In this document: piece by piece, positions 1 to 15,598 of the stretch
How positions within the stretch are numbered: position 1 is the stretch's first letter
Layout of the letters: every line of letters starts with the position of its first letter
Origin: a virus
Taxonomy: Duplodnaviria > Heunggongvirae > Uroviricota > Caudoviricetes
Length of the DNA stretch: 64,000 nucleotides
Virus record (IMG/VR): IMGVR_UViG_3300015214_000024
Span: 9,787-73,786 of that record
Reading direction: 5' to 3' (one strand)
The notes under the pieces: generated by a model
What the model was told of the DNA's origin: nothing
Databases searched by the model: none
The model's input: the letters and a program-made list of their open reading frames with translations, nothing else
Made by a program: the position numbers and the translations under genes

Positions 1-10
1 TAGATGATGG

Positions 11-55
11 TTGACTGGTGGCCAGATTCTGCTAAAAGGATCTGGTAACAAGGAG
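11..55 (+). promoter_or_regulatory. promoter/leader cassette copy A: TTGACT-N16-TGcTAAAAG then conserved leader GGATCTGGTAACAAGGAG carrying the RBS
   Basis: near-identical to cassettes at 2324, 4349 and 9984; -35/-10 spacing 16 nt; palindromic arms CCAGAT/ATCTGG flank the -10. Confidence 0.45.
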
Positions 56-62
56 ACACAAG

Positions 63-311
63 ATGGCAAAGCTTCAGATTGTCGACGGTAGTAAGTTCAC
101 CTGGAAGGGCACTCACGGCACTTCCGAGGCAAGCGACCTGTTGTTCCGGGAATGGCCTGCCAGCTTCTACATTATGTCTCCCAAGACAGGTCAGCAGAAG
201 CTGTTCCTGCAGGGTGAAGCAAAGCGTTGCGGCACTGCTGACAACGAGCTTCAGAGCGTCGACTATTTCAATCCGGGTGGCGGGATCACTGTCACAATCT
301 TCAACGATTGA
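63..311 (+). CDS. hypothetical protein (82 aa)
   Basis: ATG preceded by AAGGAG in conserved leader; intact ORF. Confidence 0.6.
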   Translation: MAKLQIVDGSKFTWKGTHGTSEASDLLFREWPASFYIMSPKTGQQKLFLQGEAKRCGTADNELQSVDYFNPGGGITVTIFND

Positions 312-697
312 TTGGTTGACTTAGCATCAACCAGATGCTAGAAGAAGGAATACAAAGGGGCGGTTGCAAACGTCCTGGAGTTGTCGACAAGCCGAAAGGT
401 TTGGAGCCTGTCGTCTATTAGCCAGCGGTGTTCGAAAGCTTCTGGTTCAGGTAAGACGCCACCTCTTGTATAGGGGAAAAGTGGGGTTCGAAGCCCACCA
501 GGCCTTACGATCTGTGCCCAAGACCACTAGGGCCTTGTTAGGGTGGCACTGAAGGAGAAGGTATTTTTACGTCTTCCCGGAGGTTTTGAAAGGGTGTGTA
601 GAAACCGGCCAGCCATCAATGGCTCGTGGAGGAAGCCTCATCTTAGGTTGAGTGCAGGTACATAGAAGCGTGTGCCGGACCCACTTTTTAGGAGATT

Positions 698-979
698 GTG
701 ATGCGAGTTATTCTTTTTGCTTTGGCAGCACTAGCACTTATCCCAGCAGGGATTTGGCTCGAATTTGTCCATCCGGTCAATTCGATCACTGCTGACTTGG
801 AAGCCGATGGGGTAACTGATATCAATCTCCAGTATCGTATGTTCAGCGGCACGATTTTTACCCGCTGCAACCACGAACACGCAACCATCCGTTCGTTCAC
901 CGGCATCAAAAATGGCCGCTATGTGCAGGGTATTTCCTGCTATGCGCCTCTTTGGGGTTCCACACATTGGTTTGATTGA
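698..979 (+). CDS. hypothetical small protein with hydrophobic N-terminus (93 aa)
   Basis: AGGAG 7 nt upstream; N-terminal signal/TM-like segment. Confidence 0.5.
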   Translation: MMRVILFALAALALIPAGIWLEFVHPVNSITADLEADGVTDINLQYRMFSGTIFTRCNHEHATIRSFTGIKNGRYVQGISCYAPLWGSTHWFD

Positions 980-1026
980 CTAACTTCCAAAACTGTAGTA
1001 TTAAAAGCGGGAAATGGAGGTTAGTT

Positions 1027-1386
1027 ATGTATCAGATTGTCGTCAGCGTAATGCCCAAGTTTTTCGATGCATTCAATGGTCCTGCTGGAAATAGTGGCCG
1101 GCCCCACTCGTGGGTTTCGGCTTCCGGCGATGAACTTCCGGATATGATCCAAAGCCTGCGTAAGCACGCTGCTCGTGATATGAAAATGTCCGATGACGAG
1201 CTGGGCTTGATGGAACGTCTTGTCCTCAATGCTTGGACCAATCAGCTCAAGAACTCCATAGCAGTGTTCAGCAGCGATGAATTTGTCAACATCTCCATAT
1301 TGGATGCTGAAGACATTGCTGCCCGTGATGCAGCCTTGGCTGAGCTTGGCTTTGGTGGGTTCAGCACAGGAGGTACTATCCATTGA
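1027..1386 (+). CDS. hypothetical protein (119 aa from internal ATG)
   Basis: GGAGG RBS before ATG at 1027; track ORF 976..1386. Confidence 0.55.
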   Translation: MYQIVVSVMPKFFDAFNGPAGNSGRPHSWVSASGDELPDMIQSLRKHAARDMKMSDDELGLMERLVLNAWTNQLKNSIAVFSSDEFVNISILDAEDIAARDAALAELGFGGFSTGGTIH

Positions 1387-1571
1387 AAGTGCTGGCAGAT
1401 TTCGAAACCCGTGCTGGGGATTATGAGATCGTCGAATTTCCTGACGGTACTTACAGGATACGATGCGATAGGGTTGACAAGCACGGCATATGCACAGCTA
1501 ATGATGTAATAGCTTGGCTCAGTAATGCTCTGCACAATGCAGAATTCCTACTCAACAAGCACAATATCTAA
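1383..1571 (+). CDS. hypothetical protein (62 aa), non-ATG (TTG/GTG) start overlapping upstream stop
   Basis: ORF with TTGA overlap coupling; no internal ATG; followed by terminator. Confidence 0.35.
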   Translation: MKVLADFETRAGDYEIVEFPDGTYRIRCDRVDKHGICTANDVIAWLSNALHNAEFLLNKHNI

Positions 1572-1572
1572 A

Positions 1573-1593
1573 GGGGCCCAGGCCCCTTTTTTT
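1573..1593 (+). terminator. rho-independent terminator GGGGCC-ca-GGCCCC followed by T7
   Basis: perfect GC hairpin followed by TTTTTTT. Confidence 0.7.
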
Positions 1594-1712
1594 ATTCATC
1601 ACCATTAACTATATCTGTTAAAGTTAATTTTTAGGCATAAATTTGTGACCTTTTTTTGTTGACCGCATCTTTTTTTCTGCTAGAAGGATGGGGTAACGAA
1701 GGAGATGTTAAG

Positions 1713-2120
1713 ATGCTCAATGCTGCTGAAATCGCCGCCCTCGAGAACAACATCGACAACGTGTGGTCGCTGGCTGACTACCTCTCCTACCTCAATGCCG
1801 ATGCGCGCAAGCGTATGGCTGAAACTCCCGGCCTGTGGTGCTCGGAATTCACCGAGGACCTGTCGCACTGGGCTGAAGTTAACATCACCACAGCTCGCGA
1901 TCTCGCGAACTATCTCGACGCTTGCTTCCAGCGAGAAGTTCAGAAGTCAATGTATGACTATGATCGGTTCGATGATGAAATCGAGGCTTCGCGCAAAGAG
2001 CAGGCACGTCGTGATAATGTTGAACGACGTGCCCTGAAAGCCCAATATGTGAATGTGGCACCTGAGCCCAACAATGCTATCGGGAATGCTCTCCTGCAGG
2101 CATTGGGGGTCAAATGCTAA
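1713..2120 (+). CDS. hypothetical protein (135 aa from internal ATG)
   Basis: AAGGAG before ATG 1713; track ORF 1656..2120. Confidence 0.6.
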   Translation: MLNAAEIAALENNIDNVWSLADYLSYLNADARKRMAETPGLWCSEFTEDLSHWAEVNITTARDLANYLDACFQREVQKSMYDYDRFDDEIEASRKEQARRDNVERRALKAQYVNVAPEPNNAIGNALLQALGVKC

Positions 2121-2293
2121 CTAATCCCAAGTTGGGCCAGGAGGTAATCTTCACCTCGCGAATCCGTGGCATCTGCTATAAGCGGGCCATTGTGGTCAGA
2201 GTCGATGGTGCTTGGGCAGTCAAGCTAAAAGAAGACGGTGATACGTTCTTTGTTGATTTGGCTGATGAAATCGAAAATGTGCGTGGTACGTGA
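2114..2293 (+). CDS. hypothetical small protein (59 aa), start overlaps upstream stop (ATGCTAA)
   Basis: uninterrupted frame, GGGGG 8 nt upstream; below ORF-track length cutoff. Confidence 0.3.
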   Translation: MLTNPKLGQEVIFTSRIRGICYKRAIVVRVDGAWAVKLKEDGDTFFVDLADEIENVRGT

Positions 2294-2323
2294 AAAAAAG
2301 ACCTGTTAACTACCTTTTTTTTG

Positions 2324-2351
2324 TCGACCAGGCCAATAATTCTGCTAAAAG
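2324..2351 (+). promoter_or_regulatory. promoter cassette copy D (TcGACC-N16-TGcTAAAAG)
   Basis: same -10 region CTGCTAAAAGGG as copies A/B/C; upstream of 2388 gene. Confidence 0.4.
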
Positions 2352-2387
2352 GGTGGCAGTTAAACGCAAACGCAAGGAGATACGAAG

Positions 2388-2978
2388 ATGGCTACTGCAA
2401 TTGAAAAGCTTCAGAATGTTATCGCCAAGGTCGGTGATGTCGACAACGCCGGCGAGATGATCGCACAGGGCATCAAGGCTCGCAAGAAGGCGGACCTGAA
2501 GGTGTTGGGCTTCACTGCAATGTCGGCGACGGTGGCAACGGACGAAGGCGACACGCTTCGCATCGTGTCCAAGCGTGATGCGGCTGATGCTCAGTTCCAG
2601 GGCTTTACGAAGCGCAAGACGTCCGTTATGTTACCCAAGACCGAGACGGTGGCGGACCTGGATGGTTTCCGGATCGACAAGATCGAGCAGCTGGTGCCGC
2701 TGAAGACTGTCATCGGCGACGACAATGATGCATTCAACAGCTGGCTGGCTCGCTATGCAGGTGCTCGTTCGACGGGCAAGGCAACTCGCGGCGCTCGCGA
2801 TGAAGCTGCTCCGGCATCCGTTCAGAACATCGTCCACGTCGGCAACCTGCGCGGTCTGGTCAACAAGATGGTCCAGTTCAATGCCGGCGCAATGGCGATG
2901 ACGTTCGATCGCTTCTCGGTCCGCGAGAACCAGGACGGCACGAAGCAGATCGTGATTACCGATCCCTTCAACGCCTGA
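2388..2978 (+). CDS. hypothetical protein (196 aa), strong RBS, GC-rich codon usage
   Basis: AAGGAGAT RBS; clean ORF; 9-bp hairpin GGGAGTCAA/TTGACTCCC downstream (2985-3030). Confidence 0.7.
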   Translation: MATAIEKLQNVIAKVGDVDNAGEMIAQGIKARKKADLKVLGFTAMSATVATDEGDTLRIVSKRDAADAQFQGFTKRKTSVMLPKTETVADLDGFRIDKIEQLVPLKTVIGDDNDAFNSWLARYAGARSTGKATRGARDEAAPASVQNIVHVGNLRGLVNKMVQFNAGAMAMTFDRFSVRENQDGTKQIVITDPFNA

Positions 2979-3052
2979 AACAAAATGGGAGTCAATGAAA
3001 TAAAGTAGTTGACTCCCATTCATCCAGGCCATAGAAGACGAATATCAAATGG

Positions 3053-3173
3053 GCCCGCGTAGCACAAGCGGCTAGTGCGCTCTTAGACTTTACCCGAGGT
3101 AGGCCACCGAGGGGCTTGGATAGGCCATCCAATGCGTCTGAGTGAGATTCCAGTTCGAATCTGGACGCGGGCA
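3053..3173 (+). ncRNA. tRNA-like RNA (121 nt): 7-bp acceptor stem, D-arm, T-arm with TTCGAAT loop, but 47-nt insertion in place of anticodon loop
   Basis: GCCCGCG...CGCGGGC acceptor pairing; GCAC/GTGC D-stem with GG loop; TCCAG-TTCGAAT-CTGGA T-arm; 9-bp extended anticodon-like helix 3080-3088/3136-3144. Confidence 0.45.
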
Positions 3174-3332
3174 GCAGTATAGAAGGCCGAAAGGCAGAAG
3201 TAAAACGAGGCGACTGAGCGCGCCTATCCACGGGACGGACGACTACGCGCGGTAGGTAATCAGCCCTTGGAGGACTATACTGGCACCCATATCCGTGGAT
3301 GGGCTTCCACGGAAGCACGTGGATGGAGAACA

Positions 3333-3554
3333 ATGGCGAAGCGATCATTTTGGCAGCCAACTGGTGGCGGCTACAATGTGTTCTATGCGGAATACAGATC
3401 CCGCGAGGATCCTACAATCAAACTGTGGAAACGATGCTCCTCCGGCAAGGAACGTGAGGAGTTCATTCGTGAGCAAAGCTTGATCATTCGGCGGTTTGAG
3501 ACTGAGAAAGAGTATCTGGATTTCTACAACTTTCTGTCGACATTAGTGGCATAG
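3333..3554 (+). CDS. hypothetical protein (73 aa), TAG stop
   Basis: internal ATG with GGAG-like RBS; preceded by TCCGTGGA hairpin; ends in rare TAG. Confidence 0.45.
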   Translation: MAKRSFWQPTGGGYNVFYAEYRSREDPTIKLWKRCSSGKEREEFIREQSLIIRRFETEKEYLDFYNFLSTLVA

Positions 3555-3583
3555 CCTGCTAGTACGATTCAAAGGAGATTCAT

Positions 3584-3934
3584 ATGCAGGTTGAAACTAA
3601 ATTCATCGCCAAGGATGGCAAGAAGTTCGACACTCAGCCTGAAGCTGAAGCCTACGAGGCTGAGCTGGATCGGAAAGCTGATGAGCGCTATACCAAATAT
3701 CTGACCAGCTCTGCTGGCAAGCGGCTGCTCCAGGACCACAGTTCCACGGAAGAGGGTTATTGGCACGCCATTGGAGAGAGCGACGATCCTGGGATTGGCG
3801 GTGGACGAGGACCTGACCTTGGAATCTACAAGGGCCGGCTCGTTGATGTTATTCGCAAGGTAACGGCTATGAATGCCTTCTGGTCCTGGGGTGGCGGTGG
3901 CTACATTACCAAGGTCAATGTGACCGAACTCTAA
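3584..3934 (+). CDS. hypothetical protein (116 aa), Gly-rich C-terminus
   Basis: AAGGAG RBS. Confidence 0.65.
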   Translation: MQVETKFIAKDGKKFDTQPEAEAYEAELDRKADERYTKYLTSSAGKRLLQDHSSTEEGYWHAIGESDDPGIGGGRGPDLGIYKGRLVDVIRKVTAMNAFWSWGGGGYITKVNVTEL

Positions 3935-3993
3935 ATTGACAAAATGTAAACTGAATGTTACCATTCGGTTGAATACTTTTGGAGATTTCAGAG

Positions 3994-4158
3994 ATGGAAA
4001 CTAAGGTTGTCAAGCCTTTTACTAGTTCAGAGCTAGAACGAATCAAGAAGCTTGCGAACGAATACCGACCCTCAATGGATAAAACAGTTGTCCACGCTTG
4101 GGGCGAAGACGTTGCTAAGCTTCTTAGAAGCTATCTCACGCGCATTGGAGAGCAGTGA
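3994..4158 (+). CDS. hypothetical small protein (54 aa)
   Basis: GGAG 9 nt upstream; TGATG coupling to next ORF. Confidence 0.4.
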   Translation: METKVVKPFTSSELERIKKLANEYRPSMDKTVVHAWGEDVAKLLRSYLTRIGEQ

Positions 4159-4346
4159 TGTTCAACGTGTATCCTTGCGAGCTAACGTACACTAGAACTA
4201 CGAAGACGGGCATTCTAGCAGGCATTCCGTGCCCTTGCATTATCGGTGTCGCGTCCAAGAAGGACGGTGAGAAACTGTTTGCTGATTTGGTCAAGAACAA
4301 TCCAGACATCTCATTTACAAATCCAAAGATCAATGAGCGAAAATAA
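4158..4346 (+). CDS. hypothetical protein (62 aa)
   Basis: ATG overlapping upstream TGA. Confidence 0.5.
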   Translation: MFNVYPCELTYTRTTKTGILAGIPCPCIIGVASKKDGEKLFADLVKNNPDISFTNPKINERK

Positions 4347-4348
4347 TT

Positions 4349-4394
4349 CTTGACCTAATTCCAGATCCTGCTAAAAGGGTCTGGTAACAAGGAG
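4349..4394 (+). promoter_or_regulatory. promoter/leader cassette copy B (TTGACC-N16-TGcTAAAAG + GGTCTGGTAACAAGGAG)
   Basis: near-identical to copy A. Confidence 0.45.
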
Positions 4395-4400
4395 AAAGAA

Positions 4401-4718
4401 ATGTCTCGCACTCATCGCCGGCATCATCCTAAGACCACCAAGTGGGCTCGACGCGAAGTCGAAGGTTACACGTTCTGTGGTTGCCGCTATGCTTTCGAGG
4501 ATAACAGCGATATGAGCCAGCGCCACACGCTCAGCATCCTGCGCGGTGATGATGGCCGTATCCGCTACGACAAGTGCGCTGGTGCTGTCTCGGACAACGA
4601 GGGTAACTGGAAGCTCAACACTTGGGACGAGTCCCCTAGCAAGCACAATGATGCCCACCGTCACCGCCGCCGCGCTGACAAGAAGCTCATTCGCAGCCAG
4701 CTCAAAGATATGGATTGA
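4401..4718 (+). CDS. hypothetical basic His/Arg-rich protein (105 aa)
   Basis: conserved leader + RBS. Confidence 0.6.
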   Translation: MSRTHRRHHPKTTKWARREVEGYTFCGCRYAFEDNSDMSQRHTLSILRGDDGRIRYDKCAGAVSDNEGNWKLNTWDESPSKHNDAHRHRRRADKKLIRSQLKDMD

Positions 4719-4751
4719 CAACCCGTGTGTAAGAACGTAATCAAGAACACG

Positions 4752-5492
4752 ATGGCCCGTCTGCCCTGGGAGAAGAAGGCAGAGTTCAATATCCGGCTCA
4801 CGCTAGTGCGGGCTGCTAAGCGGCAGCGGCTCTGGGTAGAGCAAGATGGCAAATGTCACTACTGCGATCAAGAAACAGTATTGCCCAGGCCAGGACAAAA
4901 CAACCGTGGCGGCAATCTGGCAACGTTAGACCACATCATTACACAGAGCAATGGTGGGACTGATAGCCTCAACAATCTGGTCGTCGCCTGCCATACTTGC
5001 AACAGCAACCGCCTTGATATGGATTATGAAATTTTTTATAATCTAATGAAGACTCCTGGTGCTTGGAAAGAACATTGTGCTGAAATGGCCCGGCAGAAAG
5101 CGGCTCGTGATGAAGAACGTCGCAAAGCAAACCTTCGCCGTCACGAAGAACTCCTGGCAATGGAAAAAGCTGCCGCATCTGCTCGCCAAATGGAACGGCT
5201 CCGCAAACACGCTCCGAATGTGATCAAATTTGCTCAGCGTGAGGGTTTTATTCTTCCTACTGATCCTGAAGAGCGTATCCAATGGGCTATCAATTATCAT
5301 CTTGAACAAGCTCGGCTCCACAAAATGTTCGGTCCTAATGGTGACAACCTTTTGAAGGATTGGCTCCATCGATCAAACTTCGCACCACGGAAGGATGGCC
5401 GTGGATGGGTAGCTATCCAGGAATGCTCTTCCAGGGACCCTCTTCCGTGGAGGGACTTGACTGGAGAGACGGAATTCTATATTATGAATTAA
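4752..5492 (+). CDS. HNH homing endonuclease
   Basis: CHYCD...LDHIITQSNGGTDSLNNLVVACHTCNSNR HNH motif; ends 3 nt before tRNA. Confidence 0.7.
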   Translation: MARLPWEKKAEFNIRLTLVRAAKRQRLWVEQDGKCHYCDQETVLPRPGQNNRGGNLATLDHIITQSNGGTDSLNNLVVACHTCNSNRLDMDYEIFYNLMKTPGAWKEHCAEMARQKAARDEERRKANLRRHEELLAMEKAAASARQMERLRKHAPNVIKFAQREGFILPTDPEERIQWAINYHLEQARLHKMFGPNGDNLLKDWLHRSNFAPRKDGRGWVAIQECSSRDPLPWRDLTGETEFYIMN

Positions 5493-5494
5493 TC

Positions 5495-5572
5495 GCAGGC
5501 GTAGTGCTCAGTGGCAGAGCCGGGGTCTCTAAAACCCGTCGGTCGTGGGTTCGATGCCCACCGCTTGCACCA
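5495..5572 (+). tRNA. tRNA with anticodon CUA (candidate amber suppressor), CCA encoded; atypical 4-nt spacer between acceptor and D stems
   Basis: acceptor GCAGGCG/CGCTTGC (one G-U), D-arm GCTC-AGTGGCA-GAGC, anticodon loop CUCUAAA, T-arm GTGGG-TTCGATG-CCCAC, A73-CCA, then T5. Confidence 0.5.
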
Positions 5573-5587
5573 TTTTTAGGAGGTTGA

Positions 5588-5821
5588 ATGGTTGACATTA
5601 AAATCGTTTTTGACCGAAAACTAGACATTGTTGAGCTAGAAGTCTTAGCGGCGAAATTTCGGTCTGGAATGTCAACCCATACTTCTTATAAAAAAAAGCC
5701 ATATGTATCTGGTTTAGCCAACACTGCGGTTATTTCAATACCCAAAAAGCATCTTTATAGTGTTATTAACTATCTTCTTACTTTCCCTGAAATCAAATAT
5801 GCGGATCCAATGTATGACTGA
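5588..5821 (+). CDS. hypothetical protein (77 aa)
   Basis: AGGAGG RBS. Confidence 0.6.
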   Translation: MVDIKIVFDRKLDIVELEVLAAKFRSGMSTHTSYKKKPYVSGLANTAVISIPKKHLYSVINYLLTFPEIKYADPMYD

Positions 5822-6197
5822 AAATGATGTCGTAAACAGTCAAGCATTCAAAGTCATCAACCTGATGATTGACCAGAAGGCTGAAGAACTCAAGCGATAT
5901 ATGCTCGGTCTCAAGGACCGTACTGAGATTCTGTTCCGTGAACAGAAATATCCTCCAGCCGTTCGCACTCGCATCCATTGTGAAAATCCTCGCAATAGTG
6001 GTGCCTACACAGCACTTCCAGCCCACCCCCACGAGGTCAAAGACCTTCAGCACTACCTAGATTCAATCGCCACGTTGGAGAAGGAAATCAACGAACTCCA
6101 GAAGATGAAATGTCGCTTGACTGGCGACTGGGATTTCACTAATGGTGATACATCCGATATGGAAGCCGTTTTTGGCGAAAAGATTGAAGGTATGTGA
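5814..6197 (+). CDS. hypothetical coiled-coil protein (127 aa)
   Basis: ATGACTGA overlap with upstream stop. Confidence 0.5.
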   Translation: MTENDVVNSQAFKVINLMIDQKAEELKRYMLGLKDRTEILFREQKYPPAVRTRIHCENPRNSGAYTALPAHPHEVKDLQHYLDSIATLEKEINELQKMKCRLTGDWDFTNGDTSDMEAVFGEKIEGM

Positions 6198-6772
6198 TGT
6201 ACATCAAGAATTTCCTTAACAAGAATATGTGCTCGAAGTATTTCGAGATGTTCTGGAATGACCTTGATTGGGAGCGTCGTCCGGATGCTCCGCGTCGCGA
6301 ATATTGGACTAACCTGTATGACCGCGATTATACATATGGCCGAGGTGCTGGCATTCGCACCTATCAGGCCCGTGAAGGACACCCAGATATTTGGGCTATC
6401 GGAACCTATTCAGAAATGGAAGCCTTTGACCACGGTATGATGGACAATGGCCAGATGTTTGAGGGGTGCTTCCTCAATGGTTACGAAGGGGCAAGGGACT
6501 GGCTGGGCTGGCACGCCGATGACGATCCAGCTATCGATCACAGTAAGCCTATCGCCATCGTGACACTGTATCGTGAGCCCGAGAAGAAGCCGCGTGTAAT
6601 CCAGTTCAGGGACAATGCTACGCAGACAGTTGAATCTGTCGAACTACACCACGGCTCCTTGTATTTGATGCCGCCCGGTTTTCAGTTTACACATCAGCAT
6701 CGAATCCCTAAAGCGGGATTTGAATGCAGTGACCGGATCTCCCTCACATTCAGGGGCTTAGTAAAAAACTAA
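6197..6772 (+). CDS. alkB: AlkB-like 2OG-Fe(II) dioxygenase (nucleic acid demethylase)
   Basis: HxD (GWHADDD), distal His (FTHQHRIP) and RISLTFR motif; TGATG coupling. Confidence 0.75.
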   Translation: MYIKNFLNKNMCSKYFEMFWNDLDWERRPDAPRREYWTNLYDRDYTYGRGAGIRTYQAREGHPDIWAIGTYSEMEAFDHGMMDNGQMFEGCFLNGYEGARDWLGWHADDDPAIDHSKPIAIVTLYREPEKKPRVIQFRDNATQTVESVELHHGSLYLMPPGFQFTHQHRIPKAGFECSDRISLTFRGLVKN

Positions 6773-6776
6773 GCCC

Positions 6777-6804
6777 TTGACTTTCGCTATAGTTAATGTA
6801 TGCT
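6777..6804 (+). promoter_or_regulatory. sigma70-like promoter TTGACT-N16-TATGCT
   Basis: consensus -35, 16-nt spacer; preceded by hairpin GGGCTTAG/CTAAGCCC (6756-6778). Confidence 0.4.
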
Positions 6805-6833
6805 TGCGTGGAGATAACTACGTGAGGTAAATT

Positions 6834-7145
6834 GTGGCGAAAACCCCATCGTGGAGAAAACGCGAACCCGTCGAGGCTCTAGAAGACCTAAGGGACGACT
6901 GTATCGCAATTGTCATCAATTCGAAGATGACATTCAAGCAAGTCCACGAACAGGGCGGGCCAACTCCTACAACCATCAGCAAATGGCTGTACAGGGAAAC
7001 GAAGTTCCCTAGATTAACGACCATACGGGCAATATTAAATGCCTGTGATCACGATTTAACAATAACATCACGTGGTGATCGTGTCAAGAGATATGGGCAC
7101 GAAGGAATCCAATATCCTCCGAACAAAACTCGTCGCAAAAAATAA
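6834..7145 (+). CDS. HTH-type DNA-binding protein (103 aa), GTG start
   Basis: GAGGT RBS; helix-turn-helix-like segment TISKWLYRETKFPRLTTIRAIL. Confidence 0.45.
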   Translation: MAKTPSWRKREPVEALEDLRDDCIAIVINSKMTFKQVHEQGGPTPTTISKWLYRETKFPRLTTIRAILNACDHDLTITSRGDRVKRYGHEGIQYPPNKTRRKK

Positions 7146-7195
7146 TCATTGACATTTCTCCGTAATCAGCTATCAGTCTGGTGACGGAGGAACAA

Positions 7196-7717
7196 ATGAA
7201 TCTTTTGGCGTACGAAATTCGTGGTGCCCAGGTCCACATCAAAGCAGCCACGAGCGTTAAGAAAGACGGATCGTTCCGCCTCAAGGAAACATACGGGATT
7301 GGTGGTAATCCGCAAGGAGTTCGCGGTTCTGAAAAGCATATCAAAAAGCTGAATCAAGTTTCCACCATCTTCTCAAATGCTACTGGCGATGACTGGGACA
7401 TTGGTGAGTTAGTTTACATTGATTCTCCCCGCCAATATTATGGCTACATTACAAATGGGGAGGATAAACTTCTCTATATGTATATCGCCACCCACGCACC
7501 GGGCAGTGGGCAACAGTATTTCTTCTCACCACATTTAAGCCCGACACGGGTATTGAACTCCAATTTCAATCCCGAACTGGCAGCTTGGATTATCAAAAGT
7601 CGGTTTTCCAAAGATTATCAGAAAATCGGTTGGAATGATCAGCAAATAATGATTGACCTACTCCGCCAAGGTGTTACAGCTGATGTTGTAAACACCGCGC
7701 TTGCCGTAATGCGCTGA
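7196..7717 (+). CDS. hypothetical protein (173 aa)
   Basis: GGAGG 6 nt before ATG. Confidence 0.6.
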   Translation: MNLLAYEIRGAQVHIKAATSVKKDGSFRLKETYGIGGNPQGVRGSEKHIKKLNQVSTIFSNATGDDWDIGELVYIDSPRQYYGYITNGEDKLLYMYIATHAPGSGQQYFFSPHLSPTRVLNSNFNPELAAWIIKSRFSKDYQKIGWNDQQIMIDLLRQGVTADVVNTALAVMR

Positions 7718-7728
7718 GGAGGTTATAA

Positions 7729-8016
7729 ATGAAACCGACGGTTAAGGAACGCACGAAGGTTATTGGTGATACCCGTATCACGTCTTTGGTTTCGACCACC
7801 AAAGCTACCTGGAAGCGAATCTCGACTTACTGGCGATTGCCTTGCGGATGTGTCAATCCAGATATTTGGACCTCGGATGATCTCCACCAGTCAGAATGCA
7901 CGGATTGCGGGCGACGATGGAAGCATATGACCACTACTTGCGAAATGCTCGATGGGCAGCCGCAAGGTCCTGAAGTGTATGTGCTGACTGAAAAGATGAT
8001 CTTCAATGGTGTCTGA
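7729..8016 (+). CDS. hypothetical Cys-rich protein (95 aa)
   Basis: GAGGAGG RBS. Confidence 0.55.
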   Translation: MKPTVKERTKVIGDTRITSLVSTTKATWKRISTYWRLPCGCVNPDIWTSDDLHQSECTDCGRRWKHMTTTCEMLDGQPQGPEVYVLTEKMIFNGV

Positions 8017-8314
8017 GGACTTATCAGCTGGTGATCGGCAGGGTATTATTGATGCCCTGAACAAAGCTATTATGAACCTCTATGAACAAGCGAAGGATTG
8101 TGTAAATGATCCCGAGTTTGCTGACTTGGAGGATATGTATAAGGGCGATGCCTCTGATCACGAAGGAATTCTCGAGCGGTTTATCGCCGGGGATTACAAG
8201 TCAGCAGCCCGTCAATTCCAATATATGGACACTGCATCAAGGGACAATGTGTTCGCGTTCTTCCAAAGCAAACAACACGAGCGGGCATTCATTTACTTTC
8301 TGGAGAACAGTTAA
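8006..8314 (+). CDS. hypothetical protein (102 aa)
   Basis: overlapping start. Confidence 0.5.
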   Translation: MVSEDLSAGDRQGIIDALNKAIMNLYEQAKDCVNDPEFADLEDMYKGDASDHEGILERFIAGDYKSAARQFQYMDTASRDNVFAFFQSKQHERAFIYFLENS

Positions 8315-8592
8315 TGTTCAAATGGGTTGAGGGTCGACAGAACAGTGGCTATTTCAAAATGCTTCTGTTTCGATCCAAACTGCTCAAAATGGATATGTAC
8401 CTTCTCAAATTTGAAGAAGGGGTCGTAGTGCCTTGGCATAAGGACCCTGCCAAAACTGGTCAACATTTTCGTTTCAATTTATATCTCACTCGTCCTGGTG
8501 GTGGCGAGCTTCTAATAGAAAAAAATAAGAAGGCTATTTTTCCAATCGACTTTGTCACCTGTTTCGTGCAGATGATATTCAACACGCAATGA
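8314..8592 (+). CDS. hypothetical protein (92 aa)
   Basis: TAATG coupling. Confidence 0.5.
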   Translation: MFKWVEGRQNSGYFKMLLFRSKLLKMDMYLLKFEEGVVVPWHKDPAKTGQHFRFNLYLTRPGGGELLIEKNKKAIFPIDFVTCFVQMIFNTQ

Positions 8593-8644
8593 CGCAGGTA
8601 GAAGGTGGAACCCTCTATATGCTCTCTATCGGGAAGGTTATATA

Positions 8645-9004
8645 ATGTTTGGCATCATGTTTTTGATCGGTCTTTTTCTGTGTCTAGTTCTATTTGTGTG
8701 CTATACATTTTATGACGGATCAGTATGGCAAGCATCGCGCAACCCGGACAAATATACAGTCATCGACGTCCGAACTGCCAAGACTCCAGTCAAGCATGGA
8801 GTTGCCGTTGTGCAATATGATGCTTGGGGTGACCCATATGTCGACTTTGGTATTTCTGGCAGTTACCCACTCACTGGTACTTTGAAGGTGCTAGAGAACG
8901 GTAAGATCCAGGAGCTGTACCACAACACTGAATGGCGTTTGCGTTCTGGTCCAGAGATCATTTGGCCGAACAATTCTGGCCGCAAAGCATTTGATGGATT
9001 TTAA
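8645..9004 (+). CDS. hypothetical membrane-anchored protein (119 aa)
   Basis: N-terminal TM helix. Confidence 0.55.
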   Translation: MFGIMFLIGLFLCLVLFVCYTFYDGSVWQASRNPDKYTVIDVRTAKTPVKHGVAVVQYDAWGDPYVDFGISGSYPLTGTLKVLENGKIQELYHNTEWRLRSGPEIIWPNNSGRKAFDGF

Positions 9005-9066
9005 TTTTTTCTATTGACTGCTTTCTAAATTTTGCTATTGTCCTGACATAGCAAACGGAGATTCCA

Positions 9067-9783
9067 ATGACTGACCTCAACGCAACCTGGAACGAAGCAC
9101 AGCGTGGTCCACGTATGTCAGAAGCAACTGGCAAGGTAATGTTCAAGTATCAGATGCCCGTTAAGGAACAGTTCACTATGGAACTCCCTACCGGCGCACA
9201 GATTATCCGTATGCAGGATATGGATGGCTTCTTCTGGCTGTGGGCAGTCGTCGATACTGACGCGCCGACCGAGAAGCGTTTCTTTCGTGCGTTCAAGACC
9301 GGCGCCAAGATTCCCGACGATTTCGACACCAGTCACTACGTTGGCTTCTGTGCCGTGTTCGTGCAGATGGAACTGGGCCTCTACATTTTCGAAGATCGTG
9401 CAGCGTATGACCAGCTGAATCGAATCAAGGACCGTTTCCAGGTCGAGGATGCTCCTATCACAAAGAGTGCCACGCTTCGTGAGATCGCACAGAATGCTGG
9501 TAAGAAGGTGATTGACATCAAGCTGTCCAGTCAAAGTGCTGAAGACTTTGCTGGCATTCCCTCTTTTCACGTCAACGAAGAAAACGCCCGCAAGTGGTTC
9601 AAAGAAGCAACCGCTTGGATGTATGAGGATCCGAAGAAGCAACTGAAGCTTGACATTGACGAAGTGCTGTCAGAATTCGAAGATGTACTACGGCCGATCA
9701 TTTTTCCCACTGTTAAAAAGCTGACCCAAAAGCTCATCGACGAAATCGAAGCGGCTGGCGGTTTCGAGGAGGACGAGGAATGA
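9067..9783 (+). CDS. hypothetical protein (238 aa)
   Basis: GGAG RBS; promoter TTGACT-N16-TATTGT upstream. Confidence 0.65.
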   Translation: MTDLNATWNEAQRGPRMSEATGKVMFKYQMPVKEQFTMELPTGAQIIRMQDMDGFFWLWAVVDTDAPTEKRFFRAFKTGAKIPDDFDTSHYVGFCAVFVQMELGLYIFEDRAAYDQLNRIKDRFQVEDAPITKSATLREIAQNAGKKVIDIKLSSQSAEDFAGIPSFHVNEENARKWFKEATAWMYEDPKKQLKLDIDEVLSEFEDVLRPIIFPTVKKLTQKLIDEIEAAGGFEEDEE

Positions 9784-9980
9784 AAGTACATCTCCATTCG
9801 GAACAATTTGACGGCTACTTACACGCCGCCTGTTACCGAGCACCATTTGATCCTCCGGCTCCTGATCCCAGAATTGTCGGCGAAGATGATTTTGAGAAAC
9901 TGCCAAGAGCGGCCAGGTGTCATTACTGCACTCGAATCAATTGGCCGCGTGGTGGAGATCCTATCAACGGTGAAATTTAA
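9780..9980 (+). CDS. hypothetical protein (66 aa)
   Basis: ATGA coupling. Confidence 0.45.
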   Translation: MKVHLHSEQFDGYLHAACYRAPFDPPAPDPRIVGEDDFEKLPRAARCHYCTRINWPRGGDPINGEI

Positions 9981-9983
9981 TTA

Positions 9984-10029
9984 TTGACTCTTATGCCATT
10001 TCCTGTAAAAGGGACTGGTAACAAGGAGG
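9984..10029 (+). promoter_or_regulatory. promoter/leader cassette copy C (TTGACT-N16-TGtAAAAG + GGACTGGTAACAAGGAGG)
   Basis: same architecture as A/B. Confidence 0.45.
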
Positions 10030-10031
10030 CA

Positions 10032-10688
10032 ATGATGCGTTACGGAAATCTTCCCACTGATCTCGGCCTAGTGGATATCTCTCCCAAGGAGATGATGTTC
10101 CATATGTATATGCCAATCAGTCTTCCAGGATCGGATCAAGTATATCTTCCTGAGCACCTCGAAGTGTTCAAGCCCCTCGTTGTCAAGGCGTGGGAAGATG
10201 AGCGCGAACGTTTCCGCGAAGAATATGTTTACCTGACTGCCAAGACCCTTTGGGTCAGCGGCCAGTATATTGGTAATCGGCCCGGATGGCACTCAGATGG
10301 ATTCGGCACAAACGACCTCAATTATATTTGGGCCGATCGAGCGCCGACTGATTTCCTCCACAGCCGCGAGGGTTTTGAATTTGAAGGTCACAATTGTGAC
10401 CACTTCTACACCTTGTGCGATATTATGGAAGAAGATACGTGGCGGCGGGACTGTGGTCGATCCTGGAGTATCAAGCAGTTTGCTGACAAGCATTTGCTCA
10501 AGTTGGATCCGAGCGTGATCCATCGTAGCCCAGTCGACTTTGAAGATGGAATGCGTTCCTTCGCCAAGGTCAGTATCTCTCCTGACCAGTATAATCTGGA
10601 GGGTAATGCCAGCAATTACCTTTTGGATCTTGACTGGAAGATGAAACCGCGTAATGTAGATCGCAATCATCCCAACAAAAGAGACTGA
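10032..10688 (+). CDS. hypothetical protein with HxD...H motif (possible cupin/2OG-oxygenase-like)
   Basis: GWHSDG and downstream His; assignment tentative. Confidence 0.55.
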   Translation: MMRYGNLPTDLGLVDISPKEMMFHMYMPISLPGSDQVYLPEHLEVFKPLVVKAWEDERERFREEYVYLTAKTLWVSGQYIGNRPGWHSDGFGTNDLNYIWADRAPTDFLHSREGFEFEGHNCDHFYTLCDIMEEDTWRRDCGRSWSIKQFADKHLLKLDPSVIHRSPVDFEDGMRSFAKVSISPDQYNLEGNASNYLLDLDWKMKPRNVDRNHPNKRD

Positions 10689-10689
10689 T

Positions 10690-10881
10690 ATGATTTTCAA
10701 AATCACTCCCAAAACTGCGCACGAGCGAAATCGTGTGCGTGAACACGGAAATCTTTGGGAGACCTACTCTGGCAATTGTGTCACCAAAGGTGATTCAAAA
10801 CTCCTAACGTCTACCCAGACTGGATACAGCCGTTGGTGGATGAACGATCAGATAGAAAAAGTAGTTGACAACGAGGGTTGA
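10690..10881 (+). CDS. hypothetical protein (63 aa)
   Basis: overlapping start. Confidence 0.45.
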   Translation: MIFKITPKTAHERNRVREHGNLWETYSGNCVTKGDSKLLTSTQTGYSRWWMNDQIEKVVDNEG

Positions 10882-11065
10882 TTTAGCTACATTGACCTTA
10901 CCAGCGGCGGGGACGCTCAATCAACCCGGTCCTAAGCATCTGCGGACTAAAGAGGATGGCCTTACGGTGTTGGGTGTCAACACTGCCCGGGACACTGGAG
11001 GAAAGTGTGTCGCTTGTTTTGGGATCAAGATTCAAAAACCGAGGGCGAGAGTCCTGGACGAGGCA

Positions 11066-11102
11066 AAAGTCCAAGGGGAGGCAACGTGGTAAACTGCCTC
11101 CC
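11066..11102 (+). terminator. rho-independent terminator GGGGAGGCA...TGCCTCCCC + ATTTTCTT
   Basis: 9-bp GC stem plus T-rich tail. Confidence 0.7.
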
Positions 11103-11148
11103 CATTTTCTTGACTTGACTCCTTGTTGGTTTGTGCTATCAATCAAAT

Positions 11149-11478: not shown

Positions 11479-11529
11479 CGGGAAATTTGTTTTTGCTATA
11501 AGCCTTGTACCAACTAGAGGAGAATGGTA

Positions 11530-11724
11530 ATGCGTACCCCCGATCAGGTCATTGCAGATCTCAAGAAGGCCGAAAAGACTGTCGAAGATGCTATCGCTGC
11601 TCGAGATCGTCTTAAGCAGGAACTGCTTGATATGGCAAAGCTCGTCAATGATGAAGTTGCGGCTATGAAGCCCAAGCCGGTTCTGGTTGCCCGGAATCAA
11701 GGCCGCACGAAGGCAGCGGCTTGA
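11530..11724 (+). CDS. hypothetical coiled-coil protein (64 aa)
   Basis: GAGGAG RBS. Confidence 0.45.
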   Translation: MRTPDQVIADLKKAEKTVEDAIAARDRLKQELLDMAKLVNDEVAAMKPKPVLVARNQGRTKAAA

Positions 11725-11748
11725 CAAATATCAAATCCGTGTTACAAT
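11721..11748 (+). promoter_or_regulatory. sigma70-like promoter TTGACA-N16-TACAAT
   Basis: near-consensus; ATG of next ORF at about +1 (leaderless). Confidence 0.5.
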
Positions 11749-11754
11749 GGTAAT

Positions 11755-12003
11755 ATGGATTTAAGTGATTTTTATGAAGAGTGCGGGAAATTGTTAGGGG
11801 TTGGCCATCAAGGCCAACCCTTTCCTTATTATAAAAGAACTCGATGGAATAACCGCACGCCTGGTCAGGGTCGATATCCTGGTCGTGGTATAATTCGAGT
11901 TTATGGTGATGTTGTCCACATTGCCCTGCAGAATCCTTCCCTATATAAAATATGCTCTCAACAAGAATGTTTGGACATATTGAGAGCTCTTGACTTGGCT
12001 TAA
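11755..12003 (+). CDS. hypothetical protein (82 aa), possibly leaderless
   Basis: ATG 7 nt after -10. Confidence 0.4.
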   Translation: MDLSDFYEECGKLLGVGHQGQPFPYYKRTRWNNRTPGQGRYPGRGIIRVYGDVVHIALQNPSLYKICSQQECLDILRALDLA

Positions 12004-12042
12004 TTTCTCCATTATGCGATGTGAATCGTAACGGAGATTCGT

Positions 12043-12964: not shown

Positions 12965-13031
12965 CATTATTAGACACTAATGTAGGTTGGAACTGTAACG
13001 CAGTGTTACACTCTTAGCAAGGAGAAGTTGA

Positions 13032-13813: not shown

Positions 13814-13830
13814 TATGTTAGGATGGGATT

Positions 13831-14833: not shown

Positions 14834-14867
14834 TGACTCAAGTTCCTTTCAATGTTATTGTGTATTT

Positions 14868-15580: not shown

Positions 15581-15598
15581 ACTTGAAAGGAAATGTAG

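Follow-up and report, generated by a model that had tools for sequence, protein, structure and literature searches.

Repeated promoter cassettes in the early-gene region of a ~465-kb phage place the -10 element in a predicted RNA hairpin

Predicted promoter cassettes in the early-gene region

The stretch of DNA analysed here (the window, 64,000 nt) is part of a 465,559-bp phage contig, and the ~465-kb phage encodes rIIA (two copies), rIIB and RNA ligases. Its early-gene region contains repeats that are compact cassettes of a promoter and a ribosome-binding site, located in a plastic stretch of co-directional small ORFans (Table 1). Each cassette spans ~55 nt, is intergenic, runs from a stop codon to a start codon and has an A/T-rich stretch directly 5' of the -35 hexamer. 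The stop codon upstream of cassettes A, C and D lies inside the -35 hexamer or 0-5 nt from it; in cassette A, the TGA (12-14) of the preceding ORF falls within the hexamer.

A first-pass annotation had listed four near-identical cassettes. Measured over the 45 nt from the -35 element to the Shine-Dalgarno sequence, this description fits the copies at 11-55, 4350-4394 and 9984-10029 (A, C and D), which are 77-85% identical and almost invariant between the -10 element and the Shine-Dalgarno sequence, but not the copy at 2324-2380 (B), which reaches only 58-61%. Copy B has TCGACC as its -35 element and a leader ~10 nt longer, and it resembles A, C and D less than does an unlisted promoter at 1659-1705 (67-68%). 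An A7G...CT8 stem right behind the upstream stop codon precedes copy B, which has orthologues at L016 2443 and L021 3091. The degenerate 27-mer of the annotation matches exactly at 29-55 and 4368-4394 and in 0/100 shuffles; the copy at 9984-10029 is missed by this ungapped search because of a 1-nt deletion (CTG-TAAAAG). The fourth true copy, 91% identical to A, is found 592 nt upstream of window position 11 (locus L014 5019-5063). A start codon does follow each listed copy (ATG 63, 2388 and 4401), and for cassette D ATG 10035 is likelier than ATG 10032, since homologues begin MRYGN.

Table 1. Promoter cassettes, related promoters and predicted hairpins (window coordinates)
Feature	Position	Strand	Details
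Promoter of same type	316..344	+	TTGACT-N17-TAGAAG; precedes non-coding stretch 345-690
Cassette A	11..65	+	-35 TTGACT 11-16; TG 30-31; -10 TAAAAG 33-38; predicted start G45; Shine-Dalgarno AAGGAG 50-55; ATG 63; 82-aa ORFan 63-311
Cassette A hairpin	21..46	+	10-bp stem, 21-30 with 37-46; arms CCAGAT 22-27 / ATCTGG 40-45; 6-nt loop holds -10 core
Hairpin-embedded promoter	976..1029	+	-35 976-981; -10 TATTAA 999-1004; ATG 1027
Unlisted cassette, same type	1659..1715	+	TTGACC; -10 TAGAAG 1681-1686; GGGGTAACGAAGGAG; ATG 1713
Copy B, looser relative	2324..2390	+	-35 TCGACC 2324-2329; -10 TAAAAG 2346-2351; longer leader; Shine-Dalgarno 2374-2379; ATG 2388
Promoter of same type	3009..3037	+	TTGACT-N17-TAGAAG; precedes tRNA-like gene 3053-3172
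Hairpin-embedded promoter	3936..3996	+	-35 3936-3941; -10 TACCAT 3959-3964; ATG 3994
Cassette C	4350..4403	+	-35 TTGACC 4350-4355; -10 TAAAAG 4372-4377; predicted start G4384; Shine-Dalgarno 4389-4394; ATG 4401; 105-aa ORFan
Cassette C hairpin	4359-4387	+	CCAGAT 4361-4366 / GTCTGG 4379-4384
Promoter of same type	5457..5485	+	TTGACT-N17-TATTAT; precedes CUA-anticodon tRNA 5495-5572
Hairpin-embedded promoter	7149..7198	+	-35 7149-7154; -10 TATCAG 7171-7176; ATG 7196
Cassette D	9984..10037	+	-35 TTGACT 9984-9989; -10 TAAAAG 10006-10011; predicted start G10018; ATG 10035; 217-aa protein, phrog_1843
Cassette D hairpin	9994-9998/10016-10020 and 10000-10004/10010-10014	+	Register shifted 1 nt
Promoter beyond the first-pass range	11721..11775	+	TTGACA-N16-TACAAT; ATG 6 nt on (leaderless type)

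Judged by sequence, the cassettes belong to a large family of putative sigma-70-like promoters, TTGAC-N16/17-(TGC)TAnAAG, which has at least 12 members within the first 10 kb and which A, C, D and the upstream copy match best. The family extends well beyond the four copies listed at first, which are those nearest to the consensus, and it also precedes tRNA-like genes. Sites of the same layout (TTGAC-N16-18-TAnnAn) number ~29 in the window, including those at 316, 976, 1659, 3009, 3936, 5457 and 7149, and a separate consensus scan added a site at 9014. The shared grammar consists of a TTGAC -35 element, a 16/17-nt spacer, TG at -15/-14, a TAnAAG -10 hexamer, which in most strong copies ends in G where the canonical base is T, and a G-rich discriminator. 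The seventh nucleotide past the -10 element is a purine in 78% of 126 sites and is followed by T-A-A, so the predicted start is the G of GTAAC and the leader would be 18-20 nt long, room for AAGGAG plus spacer and little else. These statistics support the earlier proposal of a promoter joined to a fixed short leader with a Shine-Dalgarno sequence, at the level of predicted start sites and probable promoter activity.

The -10 element lies in the loop of a predicted hairpin

In the predicted fold the spacer (-24 to -15) forms the 5' arm and the discriminator with the start region (-8 to +2) the 3' arm, the -10 core occupies the loop, and -35-proximal bases often pair additionally with the Shine-Dalgarno sequence. 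Stems are 9-13 bp and loops 6-8 nt long. The arms CCAGAT and (A/G)TCTGG, which the annotation had assigned to its first two copies, are present in the first and third but absent from copy B. Cassette D has a lower stem in which 9988-9992 pairs with the Shine-Dalgarno region (10024-10028). Folded as sense RNA, A, C, D and the upstream copy reach -15.8 to -18.2 kcal/mol with z scores of -2.4 to -3.1 (-18.2 kcal/mol and z -2.9 for A).

Several other promoters are embedded in hairpins. At 976, bases near the -35 element pair in a 13-bp outer stem (-19.4 kcal/mol, z -5.7) with GGAGG and with the sequence as far as ATG 1027. At 7149, UUUCUCCGU pairs with ACGGAGGAA, which contains the Shine-Dalgarno sequence (-17.2 kcal/mol, z -3.0 to -3.4). 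At 11721, a 12-13-bp hairpin (~11733-11762; z -3.0 to -3.5) places the -10 element in the loop and the ATG in the 3' arm, and at 3936 the hairpin spans 3949-3970. Pairing in the 1659 cassette, which a clear intrinsic terminator (1570-1589) precedes by ~70 nt, is non-specific (spacer-shuffle z -0.4). No hairpin encloses the -10 element at 316, 3009 or 5457, and the promoters of tRNA or other RNA genes lack one altogether (0/7); at 3009, a 12-bp hairpin (2984-3020) uses the -35 hexamer as its 3' arm. Across the family, z fell below -2 at 25% of the promoter sites (n = 126) and in 8.7% of random same-locus windows (n = 150; Mann-Whitney p = 6e-4); the promoters were chosen by regular expression and include related sequences, so such p-values overstate independence. 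Significant promoters numbered 26 on the sense strand versus 16 on the antisense strand.

We consider it improbable that the inverted repeat acts in DNA, as a hairpin or cruciform that exposes the -10 element in the style of N4 virion RNA polymerase or as a recombination hot spot. The symmetry is centred on the -10 element, and in N4 the early promoters are hairpins with a centre near -12. Indel junctions among relatives that are 97-99% identical do fall on the cassettes, and the authors who described PeSL units speculated that stem-loops might be recombination targets (PMC2839356). The junctions, however, are located at the -35 hexamer or right behind the -10 element, not at the arms. Moreover, folds computed with DNA parameters are weak (-3.3 to -6.7 kcal/mol, with the bottom strand weakest; -5.8 and -3.7 kcal/mol for A) and do not beat shuffles (z -0.2 to -1.9), a nearly invariant T-G wobble lies inside the stem, the loops, at 6-8 nt, exceed the 3 nt of N4 hairpins, and canonical -35/TG/-10 elements at 16/17-nt spacing explain recognition without a hairpin.

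The arms are specific to each promoter and covary

Native units are more stable than chimeras in which one promoter's left half is joined to another promoter's leader (mean -10.8 vs -7.9 kcal/mol, Wilcoxon p = 4e-6). Shuffling the spacer only gave a mean z of -1.3, with 25/78 promoters below -2 where ~2 were expected, and values of -4.5, -3.1 and -2.2 for A, C and D. In orthologous promoters of related phages the stem is kept through compensatory changes (CCAGAT/GTCTGG, CCATAT/ATATGG, CCATTT/AAATGG and CGGATC/GATCC). Orthologous promoters of the cassette-C gene retain 7-9 of 9 stem pairs and carry double changes at three positions, from A-U to G-C, G-C to U-A and A-U to U-A.

Our main covariation test compared a 12-sequence fixed-register alignment with shuffles. 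Paired cells made up 85.8% (74.8 +/- 2.4 in shuffles), part of which could be a by-product, as promoter function (T at -17, G at -6) limits variation in stem columns 17-20 and 27-30 as well. Double-change cells numbered 13 (5.5 +/- 1.6 in shuffles), the variable stem positions 14:33, 15:32 and 16:31 held 12 compensatory cells, and the covariation score was 0.394 against 0.227, with 0/500 shuffles attaining 0.394. Slid registers gave at most 63% paired cells and scores of at most 0.173. Wobbles always pair a 5'-arm U with a 3'-arm G, with the exception of three G-U at the outermost pair. When all 27 cassettes were forced into a single register, 59% of cells were paired versus 56% in shuffles and a +1 slide was equally good; RNAalifold on the mixed alignment returned no consensus structure.

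These results bear on two further explanations. One, which we regard as distinctly improbable, is that the units function as promoters only, their likeness coming from recent duplication or gene conversion and their pairing from a spacer rich in T/C that lies opposite a discriminator and Shine-Dalgarno sequence rich in G/A. Pairs 17:30, 18:29 and 19:28 do involve positions conserved for promoter reasons, about two thirds of family promoters lack significant pairing, and recombination clearly spreads cassettes; yet the composition-preserving spacer shuffle abolishes stability, chimeras are 2.9 kcal/mol weaker, and the compensatory cells lie at variable positions.

The other, in our view highly improbable, is that the arms are operator half-sites, with a dimeric phage repressor sitting across the -10 element to shut off co-regulated early genes. 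CCAGAT...(A/G)TCTGG around the -10 element is common to A, C and the upstream copy, and the small ORF at 6834-7145 has a weak Cro/C1-like HTH match, which is sub-threshold at 17.3 bits against a Pfam cut-off of 22. Cassette D, though, lacks the left half-site, and the arms at 976, 3936, 7149 and 11721 of the same genome are unrelated, which argues against a shared operator. Orthologues alter both arms compensatorily and each promoter differently, a signature of base pairing rather than of protein recognition; mismatches are G-U-compatible on the sense strand only; and the half-sites, 18 bp apart centre to centre, are not on one helix face. Between the two options left by the annotation, operator or hairpin, the covariation, chimera and spacer-shuffle tests side with the hairpin; the dimeric-repressor operator is not supported. 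On this sequence evidence the palindromic arms are real and appear to be under selection, and the hairpin is best read as RNA.

Possible consequences in read-through RNA

The predicted start of a cassette's own transcript lies inside the 3' arm, and thus only read-through RNA could fold the hairpin. The transcript begun at the cassette would lack the 5' arm and have an open leader, while RNA begun at upstream promoters and reading through the cassette would form the hairpin. Terminator-like sites were no commoner in the scan than in shuffled sequence; two clear ones stood out, and none is located directly upstream of A, C or D. Translation of each gene, and possibly processing or stability, would then depend on the promoter from which the mRNA originated. 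We put at about an even chance this reading as a whole, a selected RNA hairpin that folds only in read-through RNA and confers origin-dependent control, with the cassettes also serving as recombination linkers.

Predicted accessibility from the Shine-Dalgarno sequence to the start codon is 0.40 in read-through RNA compared with 0.57 in the own transcript and 0.43 with a shuffled spacer (p = 0.013). In A and C a gap of 4-5 nt separates the main stem from the Shine-Dalgarno sequence. Accessibility of the latter responds little to the 5' arm specifically (0.36 vs 0.46 for C and 0.42 vs 0.55 for the upstream copy), so masking of the translation start is convincing only for some promoters (976, 7149, 11721, D and L055 9272). 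The Shine-Dalgarno sequence or AUG itself forms the 3' arm at 976, 7149, 11721, L021 7468, L022 1922 and L055 9272.

A credible though unlikely alternative is that a hairpin genuinely present in RNA serves intercistronic processing or stability instead of gating translation. Once the single-stranded leader had been cleaved, the stem might protect the 3' end of the upstream cistron; it might otherwise be an RNase III- or RNase E-type site or, in some copies, a weak read-through attenuator, that is, a PeSL-type terminator and promoter compressed until they overlap. The uncovered Shine-Dalgarno sequences of A and C and the small accessibility effect fit such a role. PeSL stem-loops are functional terminators (PMC2839356), and RegB cuts T4 early mRNAs at start-region GGAG (PMC3014915), which would leave the hairpin at a new 3' end. 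T-rich tails follow the hairpins at 3949-3970 and 11733-11762, both of which were flagged as terminator-like. Speaking against processing, no U-tract follows the stem in A, C and D (UAACAAGGAG), stems of 9-13 bp are shorter than typical RNase III substrates, and promoters with the Shine-Dalgarno sequence or AUG as 3' arm fit masking better.

Comparison with known systems

The cassettes share with N4 virion RNA polymerase promoters an inverted repeat centred near -11/-12. The hairpins of N4 combine 5-7-bp stems with 3-nt loops, function in DNA form and lack -35/-10 boxes, whereas the cassettes have larger loops, weak DNA folds and canonical boxes. With extended -10 sigma-70 promoters, including strong T4/T7 early promoters, they have in common TTGAC, 16/17-nt spacing, TG 5' of the -10 element, a G-rich discriminator and a purine start 7 nt downstream; most strong copies here have TAnAAG, unlike the near-invariant final T there. 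A -10 element ending in G may resemble alphaproteobacterial consensus sequences such as GCTANAWC.

PeSL cassettes of T4-type phages, described by Arbiol et al. 2010 (PMC2839356) and Comeau et al. 2014 (PMC4122927), are likewise repeated compact intergenic units with sigma-70-like -35/-10 elements, a Shine-Dalgarno sequence and ATG, concentrated in plastic small-ORFan regions and having an A/T-rich stretch 5' of the -35 element. In both systems indel or replacement junctions fall inside the units among close relatives and types are exchanged between genes; here, cassette types are swapped between genes across genomes. The cassettes probably act as PeSL-like recombination linkers, through which types move between genes and ORFs are gained or lost. 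The PeSL stem-loop is a G/C-rich terminator upstream of the promoter, whereas the stem here encloses the -10 element without a U-tract; A, C and D have no room for a PeSL-type terminator because of the position of the upstream stop codon. PeSL phages are 160-250 kb in size, compared with ~465 kb here.

Transcript-specific hairpins control translation of the T4 genes e, soc, 49 and I-TevI, where a promoter is likewise located within the DNA specifying the hairpin's 5' strand. Transcripts from these internal promoters lack the 5' strand and are open, and longer upstream transcripts can fold (PMC3014915). As at several promoters here, the Shine-Dalgarno sequence or AUG forms the 3' strand; the stems of A and C end before the Shine-Dalgarno sequence. 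The internal promoters of T4 belong to the late class (gp55, TATAAATA) and the device serves to delay a few genes (PMC3014915), whereas the promoters here are sigma-70-like and the predicted device recurs in about a third of the promoters of the early-type region.

Predicted promoter cassettes ahead of ORFan genes

Cassettes A, C and D are compact units of promoter, leader and ATG that share 77–85% identity over 45 nt, from the -35 through the Shine-Dalgarno sequence. A 27-nt core, CTGYTAAAAGGRKCTGGYARYARGGAG, has exact matches at 29–55 and 4368–4394 and none in 100 shuffles, and the copy at 9984–10029 has the same core sequence with a 1-nt deletion ahead of the -10. The first-pass annotation had listed four near-identical cassettes, of which these three hold and a further copy, 91% identical to A, lies outside the window, 592 nt upstream of window position 11. 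The copy at 2324, listed second, does not belong with them: it shows 58–61% identity to A, C and D, has a longer leader and is no closer to them than other regional promoters such as that at 1659 (67–68%). The arms CCAGAT and (A/G)TCTGG that had been ascribed to the first two listed copies are present in the first and third (A and C) and absent from the 2324 copy.

Coordinates of the cassettes and of associated features (window numbering unless a locus is named)
Feature	Position	Strand	-35 hexamer	Predicted start	Remark
Cassette A	11–65		TTGACT	45
Cassette C	4350–4403		TTGACC	4384
Cassette D	9984–10037		TTGACT	10018	ahead of MRYGN gene
2324 copy	2324–2380		TCGACC
Upstream copy	L014 5019–5063				outside window
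tRNA, anticodon CUA	5495–5572	+			promoter 5457–5485
tRNA-like gene	3053–3172	+			promoter 3009
Non-coding stretch	345–690	+			~340 nt, after promoter 316
12-bp hairpin	2984–3020	+			directly after stop of gene 2388–2978
Promoters with -10, 6 nt, ATG	11721–11757; 13797–13833	+
Same layout, related phages	L016 14644; L017 14848; L019 15340; L021 14161; L022 9595
HNH endonuclease gene	4725–5492	+			follows cassette C gene
rIIA paralogues, tandem, full-length	53042–55354; 55434–57608	+
rIIB	57664–59184	+			after rIIA pair
Clear terminator-like sites	1570–1589; 11796–11822
Insertions, L060 vs L061	4409–5107; 7146–7837				beside tRNA genes

The window sits within a 465,559-bp metagenomic contig (ENA ERZ27247376, k141_1276970), and loci L014 and L015 show a single-base difference from it. 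Window genes include two rIIA paralogues, rIIB, RNA ligases, an ATPase and an HNH protein. No close relative was present among 50,697 annotated phage records, megablast of window 1–12000 against annotated phages gave no match, and the best rIIA tblastn match to annotated phages was below 40% identity. Window positions 1–20,000 hold small, mostly co-directional ORFs without family matches, and the genes downstream of the cassettes are ORFans. A genome scan found homologues in Rhizobiales at 40% identity only. Host hints conflict, as an identical protein at NCBI is named 'MAG: Gammaproteobacteria bacterium' and the MRYGN protein, encoded behind cassette D, has homologues in genomes of Rhizobiales and in MAGs that bear the labels Sphingobium and Caulobacteraceae.

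The exact cassette pattern had no match in viral contigs or JGI metagenomes. A looser pattern returned 27 loci that were discarded as chance matches without Shine-Dalgarno or ATG, and protein-anchored viral contigs (L001–L013) were dropped as too distant, one being high-GC. Related sites are found all along the syntenic regions of related phages, which were fetched via homologues of two downstream genes. Within the window, A, C and D are the best-matching members of a family of ~29 TTGAC-N16-18-TAnnAn sites, to which a separate consensus scan added a site at 9014.

The promoter set consists of regular-expression matches whose sequences are related to one another; among its 126 sites the spacer is 16 nt in 70 and 17 nt in 53, and alignment on the -10 gave T-17 (65%), T-15 (58%), G-14 (51%) and C-13 (45%). 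The tabulated -35 hexamers are close to TTGACA. TGC precedes the -10 hexamer in A and C, and in D the 1-nt deletion makes TG abut it. A, C and D all have T-12, A-11 and A-8, which the search pattern demanded in the 126-site set. At -7 all three carry G, as do 42% of the 126 sites versus 22% with T, and G stands at -6 in 48%; G at -7 is unusual beside E. coli-type TAnnnT promoters, a comparison consensus that may not be that of the host. Most strong promoters end their -10 in G rather than T (TAAAAG, TAGAAG, TATAAG), and the built-in promoter scan overlooks them because it requires T as the last -10 base.

The seventh nucleotide after the -10 hexamer is a purine in 78% of the 126 sites and C in 6%, followed by T (51%), A and A. 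Since these downstream positions were not used in site selection, the purine peak, at precisely the expected distance, independently supports the sites as real promoters. There is statistical support for the G of GTAAC as the predicted start of A, C and D, and the predicted leader of ~18–20 nt is essentially AAGGAG plus spacer. A tandem second promoter with TGGTAACAA as extended -10 was rejected, there being no -35 hexamer at the proper distance. At the level of sequence, the -35/-10 grammar, the purine start peak and the short leader thus support the earlier proposal of a promoter joined to a fixed leader, and we are confident that the repeats are promoter cassettes. TTGAC-N16/17-TGnTAnAAG with a start at RTAA provides a usable promoter model for these phages.

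The stop codon of the preceding gene is often the TGA within TTGAC (A; L016 6328 and 9950; L017 6558); other upstream stops are the TAA of a recurring AATAAT 3–5 nt before (C, D, 7149 and many relatives). As the stop lies inside or 3–5 nt from the -35, the stop-to-start unit spans only ~55 nt.

The same promoter type stands ahead of a tRNA with a CUA anticodon (5457), a tRNA-like gene (3009) and a non-coding stretch (316). The tRNA, an amber suppressor called by ARAGORN, has a weak tRNA-Sec-like Rfam match (30.8 bits), with related tRNAs at the corresponding site of L021 and L061. The window seems to avoid TAG, which ends none of the 45 genes checked (22 TGA, 23 TAA); together with the CUA tRNA this may hint at recoding of stop codons elsewhere in the genome. 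The tRNA-like gene, missed by both ARAGORN and Rfam, has acceptor, D and T arms and a ~60-nt insertion in the anticodon arm, and is conserved in L017 (after 4491), L022 (after 724) and L019/L020. Within the non-coding stretch, GGGGTTCGAAGCCCAC resembles a T arm. Parts of the stretch are conserved in L021 and L016; it has no Rfam match and folds no better than shuffles. In a further arrangement the -10 (TACAAT or TAGGAT) is followed by ATG after exactly 6 nt. It lies ahead of the PF09414 RNA-ligase gene in all relatives, and judging from this spacing the mRNAs are probably leaderless.

Predicted pairing of spacer and leader within promoters

Folded as sense RNA, A, C, D and the upstream copy gave -15.8 to -18.2 kcal/mol (z -2.4 to -3.1), with a 9–10-bp stem, formed by the spacer and the discriminator plus start region, and a loop that holds the -10 core. 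Hairpins with unrelated arms were found at other promoters, namely 976 (z -5.7), 3936, 7149, 11721, L021 7468 (z -6.6), L019 9953 and L022 1922. Values of z below -2 occurred in 25% of 126 promoter sites versus 8.7% of 150 random windows from the same loci (Mann-Whitney p = 6e-4). When the 16–17-nt spacer alone was shuffled with local composition kept, the mean z was -1.3 and 25 of 78 promoters fell below -2 (A -4.5, C -3.1, D -2.2). Native units were also more stable than chimeras in which the -35 and spacer came from one promoter and the leader from another (-10.8 versus -7.9 kcal/mol; Wilcoxon p = 4e-6). Taken together, the shuffle, chimera and random-window tests show that the complementarity is specific to each promoter. 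Rfam has no family for these hairpins.

For the gene behind cassette C, the orthologous promoters form a gap-free alignment and retain 7–9 of 9 pairs, with double changes at three positions.

Hairpin arms of orthologous promoters of the cassette C gene
Source	5' arm	3' arm
Window	CCAGATCCT	AGGGTCTGG
L021	CCATATTCT	AGGATATGG
L056	CCATTTTCT	AGGAAATGG
L052	ACGGATCCT	AGGATCCAG
L060	ATAGTTTCT	AGGAACTGG

In an alignment of 12 cassettes, selected solely by a spacer ending in CTG[CT], 85.8% of cells were paired compared to 74.8 ± 2.4 in shuffles and 13 cells showed double changes compared to 5.5 ± 1.6. The covariation score of 0.394 versus 0.227 was reached by none of 500 shuffles, and slid registers attained at most 63% pairing and a score of 0.173. 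With all 27 cassettes in one register the signal was weaker and a +1 slide equally good; the D-type cassettes have their register shifted by one base. RNAalifold found no consensus structure in a mixed 19-cassette alignment, which is explained by stems in two registers and promoter-specific arms, for which a single consensus is the wrong model. The covariation supports the hairpin that had been offered as one of two explanations for the palindrome, and leaves us in little doubt that the stem is under selection.

RNA hairpin or DNA element

The other explanation was an operator for a dimeric repressor. A shared operator is unlikely because promoters of a single genome have different arms and, between orthologues, the two arms covary separately for each promoter; the palindrome itself, seen in A and C, provides no common half-site across promoters. 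The HTH protein proposed as a candidate repressor (6834..7145) has a sub-threshold match only.

A DNA hairpin promoter of the phage N4 type would have a 5–7-bp stem and a 3-nt loop and be stable as DNA. In the cassettes the loops are 6–8 nt, and folds with DNA parameters reach -3.3 to -6.7 kcal/mol, z never falling below -1.9, no better than shuffles, the bottom strand being weakest. The N4-like reading was rejected on these grounds. All wobbles in the 12-sequence alignment are U (5' arm)–G (3' arm), except for three G–U at the outermost pair, an orientation in which most would become A–C mismatches on the opposite strand. Significant folds were obtained for 26 promoters on the sense strand versus 16 on the antisense strand. 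The hairpin is thus likely, with less assurance than the selection on its stem, to act as RNA rather than DNA.

Possible role of the hairpin

Since the promoter spacer forms the 5' arm and transcription is predicted to begin within the final 2 nt of the 3' arm, the transcript made from a cassette's own promoter could not fold the hairpin and only RNA reading through from upstream could. Promoter DNA would thereby encode the 5' arm, the promoter's own transcript would remain open, and in read-through RNA the hairpin would hide the translation start region, as in the T4 genes e, soc, 49 and I-TevI. The 3' arm comprises the Shine-Dalgarno or AUG at 976, 7149, 11721, the lower stem of D, L021 7468, L022 1922 and L055 9272, the last with a hairpin of -29.9 kcal/mol. 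Modelled accessibility from Shine-Dalgarno to start was 0.40 in read-through RNA, 0.57 in the own transcript and 0.43 in spacer-shuffled read-through RNA (p = 0.013). Seven promoters that precede genes for tRNA or other RNAs, a small sample, all lacked a hairpin enclosing the -10, which fits a translation-linked role.

A serious rival is that the hairpin serves processing, 3'-end protection or attenuation. The small specific accessibility effect speaks for it, as do T-rich tails on two hairpins and the stems of A and C, in which Shine-Dalgarno sequestration is marginal and the stem ends 4–5 nt short of the Shine-Dalgarno. Intrinsic terminators were rejected for A, C and D, which have no U-tract. 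A scan of positions 1–20,000 gave terminator-like sites no more often than shuffled sequence, with two clear ones and none immediately upstream of A, C or D. Because the specific masking effect is small, we advance control of translation by transcript origin tentatively, as a possibility that may well prove wrong.

Similarly tentative is a general rule for the clade of very large phages, in which about a third of the sigma-70-like cassettes would encode the 5' arm with the -10 in the loop, so that a gene is fully expressed only from its own promoter and read-through RNA is masked, cleaved or differently stabilised. If true, it would make these plug-in gene cassettes insulated from their neighbours without terminators and explain the free shuffling of ORFan modules at these sites. 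Gating of either translation or stability by transcript origin would likewise allow terminator-free insulation of densely packed genes and help to explain how ORFans are exchanged while neighbours are spared.

Gene exchange at the cassettes and comparison with known systems

The region is a mosaic in which homologous genes keep a constant order and small ORFs are gained or lost. Between relatives of the window phage (not variants of it) that are 97–99% identical, five indels were resolved, and in three of them a junction falls on a cassette. A 113-aa ORF and a promoter, present in L019 and absent from L020, have their junction in AAAAAATAnTTGAC, common to the two flanking promoters; in L020 versus L019 a 52-aa ORF is inserted directly after a -10 hexamer; and in L058 versus L059 a 98-aa ORF has its right junction at the TTGACC of the cassette that follows. 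The window phage has a homologue of this 98-aa ORF at a distance of ~14 kb. The remaining two indels concern a GIY-YIG endonuclease and a tRNA region. The 99% identical L060 and L061 differ by a SegE-like GIY-YIG gene and by a zinc-finger ORF with a different tRNA, homing-endonuclease-type mosaicism that exists besides the cassette-linked indels.

Cassette types also change partners. Ahead of the MRYGN gene the window has the D-type (CCAnTTCCTGTAAAAGGGACTGGTAA), which in L017 and L056 stands before the orthologue of the cassette A gene, and an A/C-type cassette (CCAGATCC...GGTCTGGTAACAAGGAG) precedes the MRYGN gene in L022. The window HNH gene lacks a separate promoter; a dedicated cassette precedes it in relatives (L016 6328), and L017 carries two HNH paralogues with near-identical cassettes (6558, 7247).

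The same recombination behaviour has been described for PeSL cassettes (PMC2839356, PMC4122927). Among PeSLs, recombination from one cassette to another also yields mini-circles. Shared with these are a compact sigma-70-like early promoter with Shine-Dalgarno and ATG between small ORFs of a plastic region, and indel or replacement junctions within cassettes of close relatives. The upstream terminator stem-loop that defines PeSLs is missing from A, C and D, where the stop lies inside the -35 or 3–5 nt before it. An upstream stem occurs only at 1659 (the terminator at 1570–1589), the 2324 copy (A7G...CT8) and 3009; the last is a perfect 12-bp hairpin (AATGGGAGTCAA...TTGACTCCCATT) without a T-tract, whose 3' arm is the -35 hexamer of that promoter.

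In T4 e, soc, 49 and I-TevI, a promoter lies within the DNA for the hairpin 5' strand and longer transcripts hide the translation start (PMC3014915). The cassettes share with the gene e-type device a promoter embedded in 5'-strand DNA, an own transcript that, from the predicted start, lacks that strand, and a structure under selection, here by covariation. They differ in that the T4 internal promoter is late (gp55-type), whereas the cassettes have a TTGAC -35 and lack a late-type TATAAATA box. In their proposed mode of action they resemble both PeSLs and the gene e device of T4, and they match the complete definition of neither. Both repeated promoter cassettes in the early regions of phages and single T4 genes with promoter-dependent translation were already known; what is new is their recurrent fusion, with spacer and discriminator/leader co-evolving as hairpin arms in many cassettes of a clade of very large, uncultivated phages.
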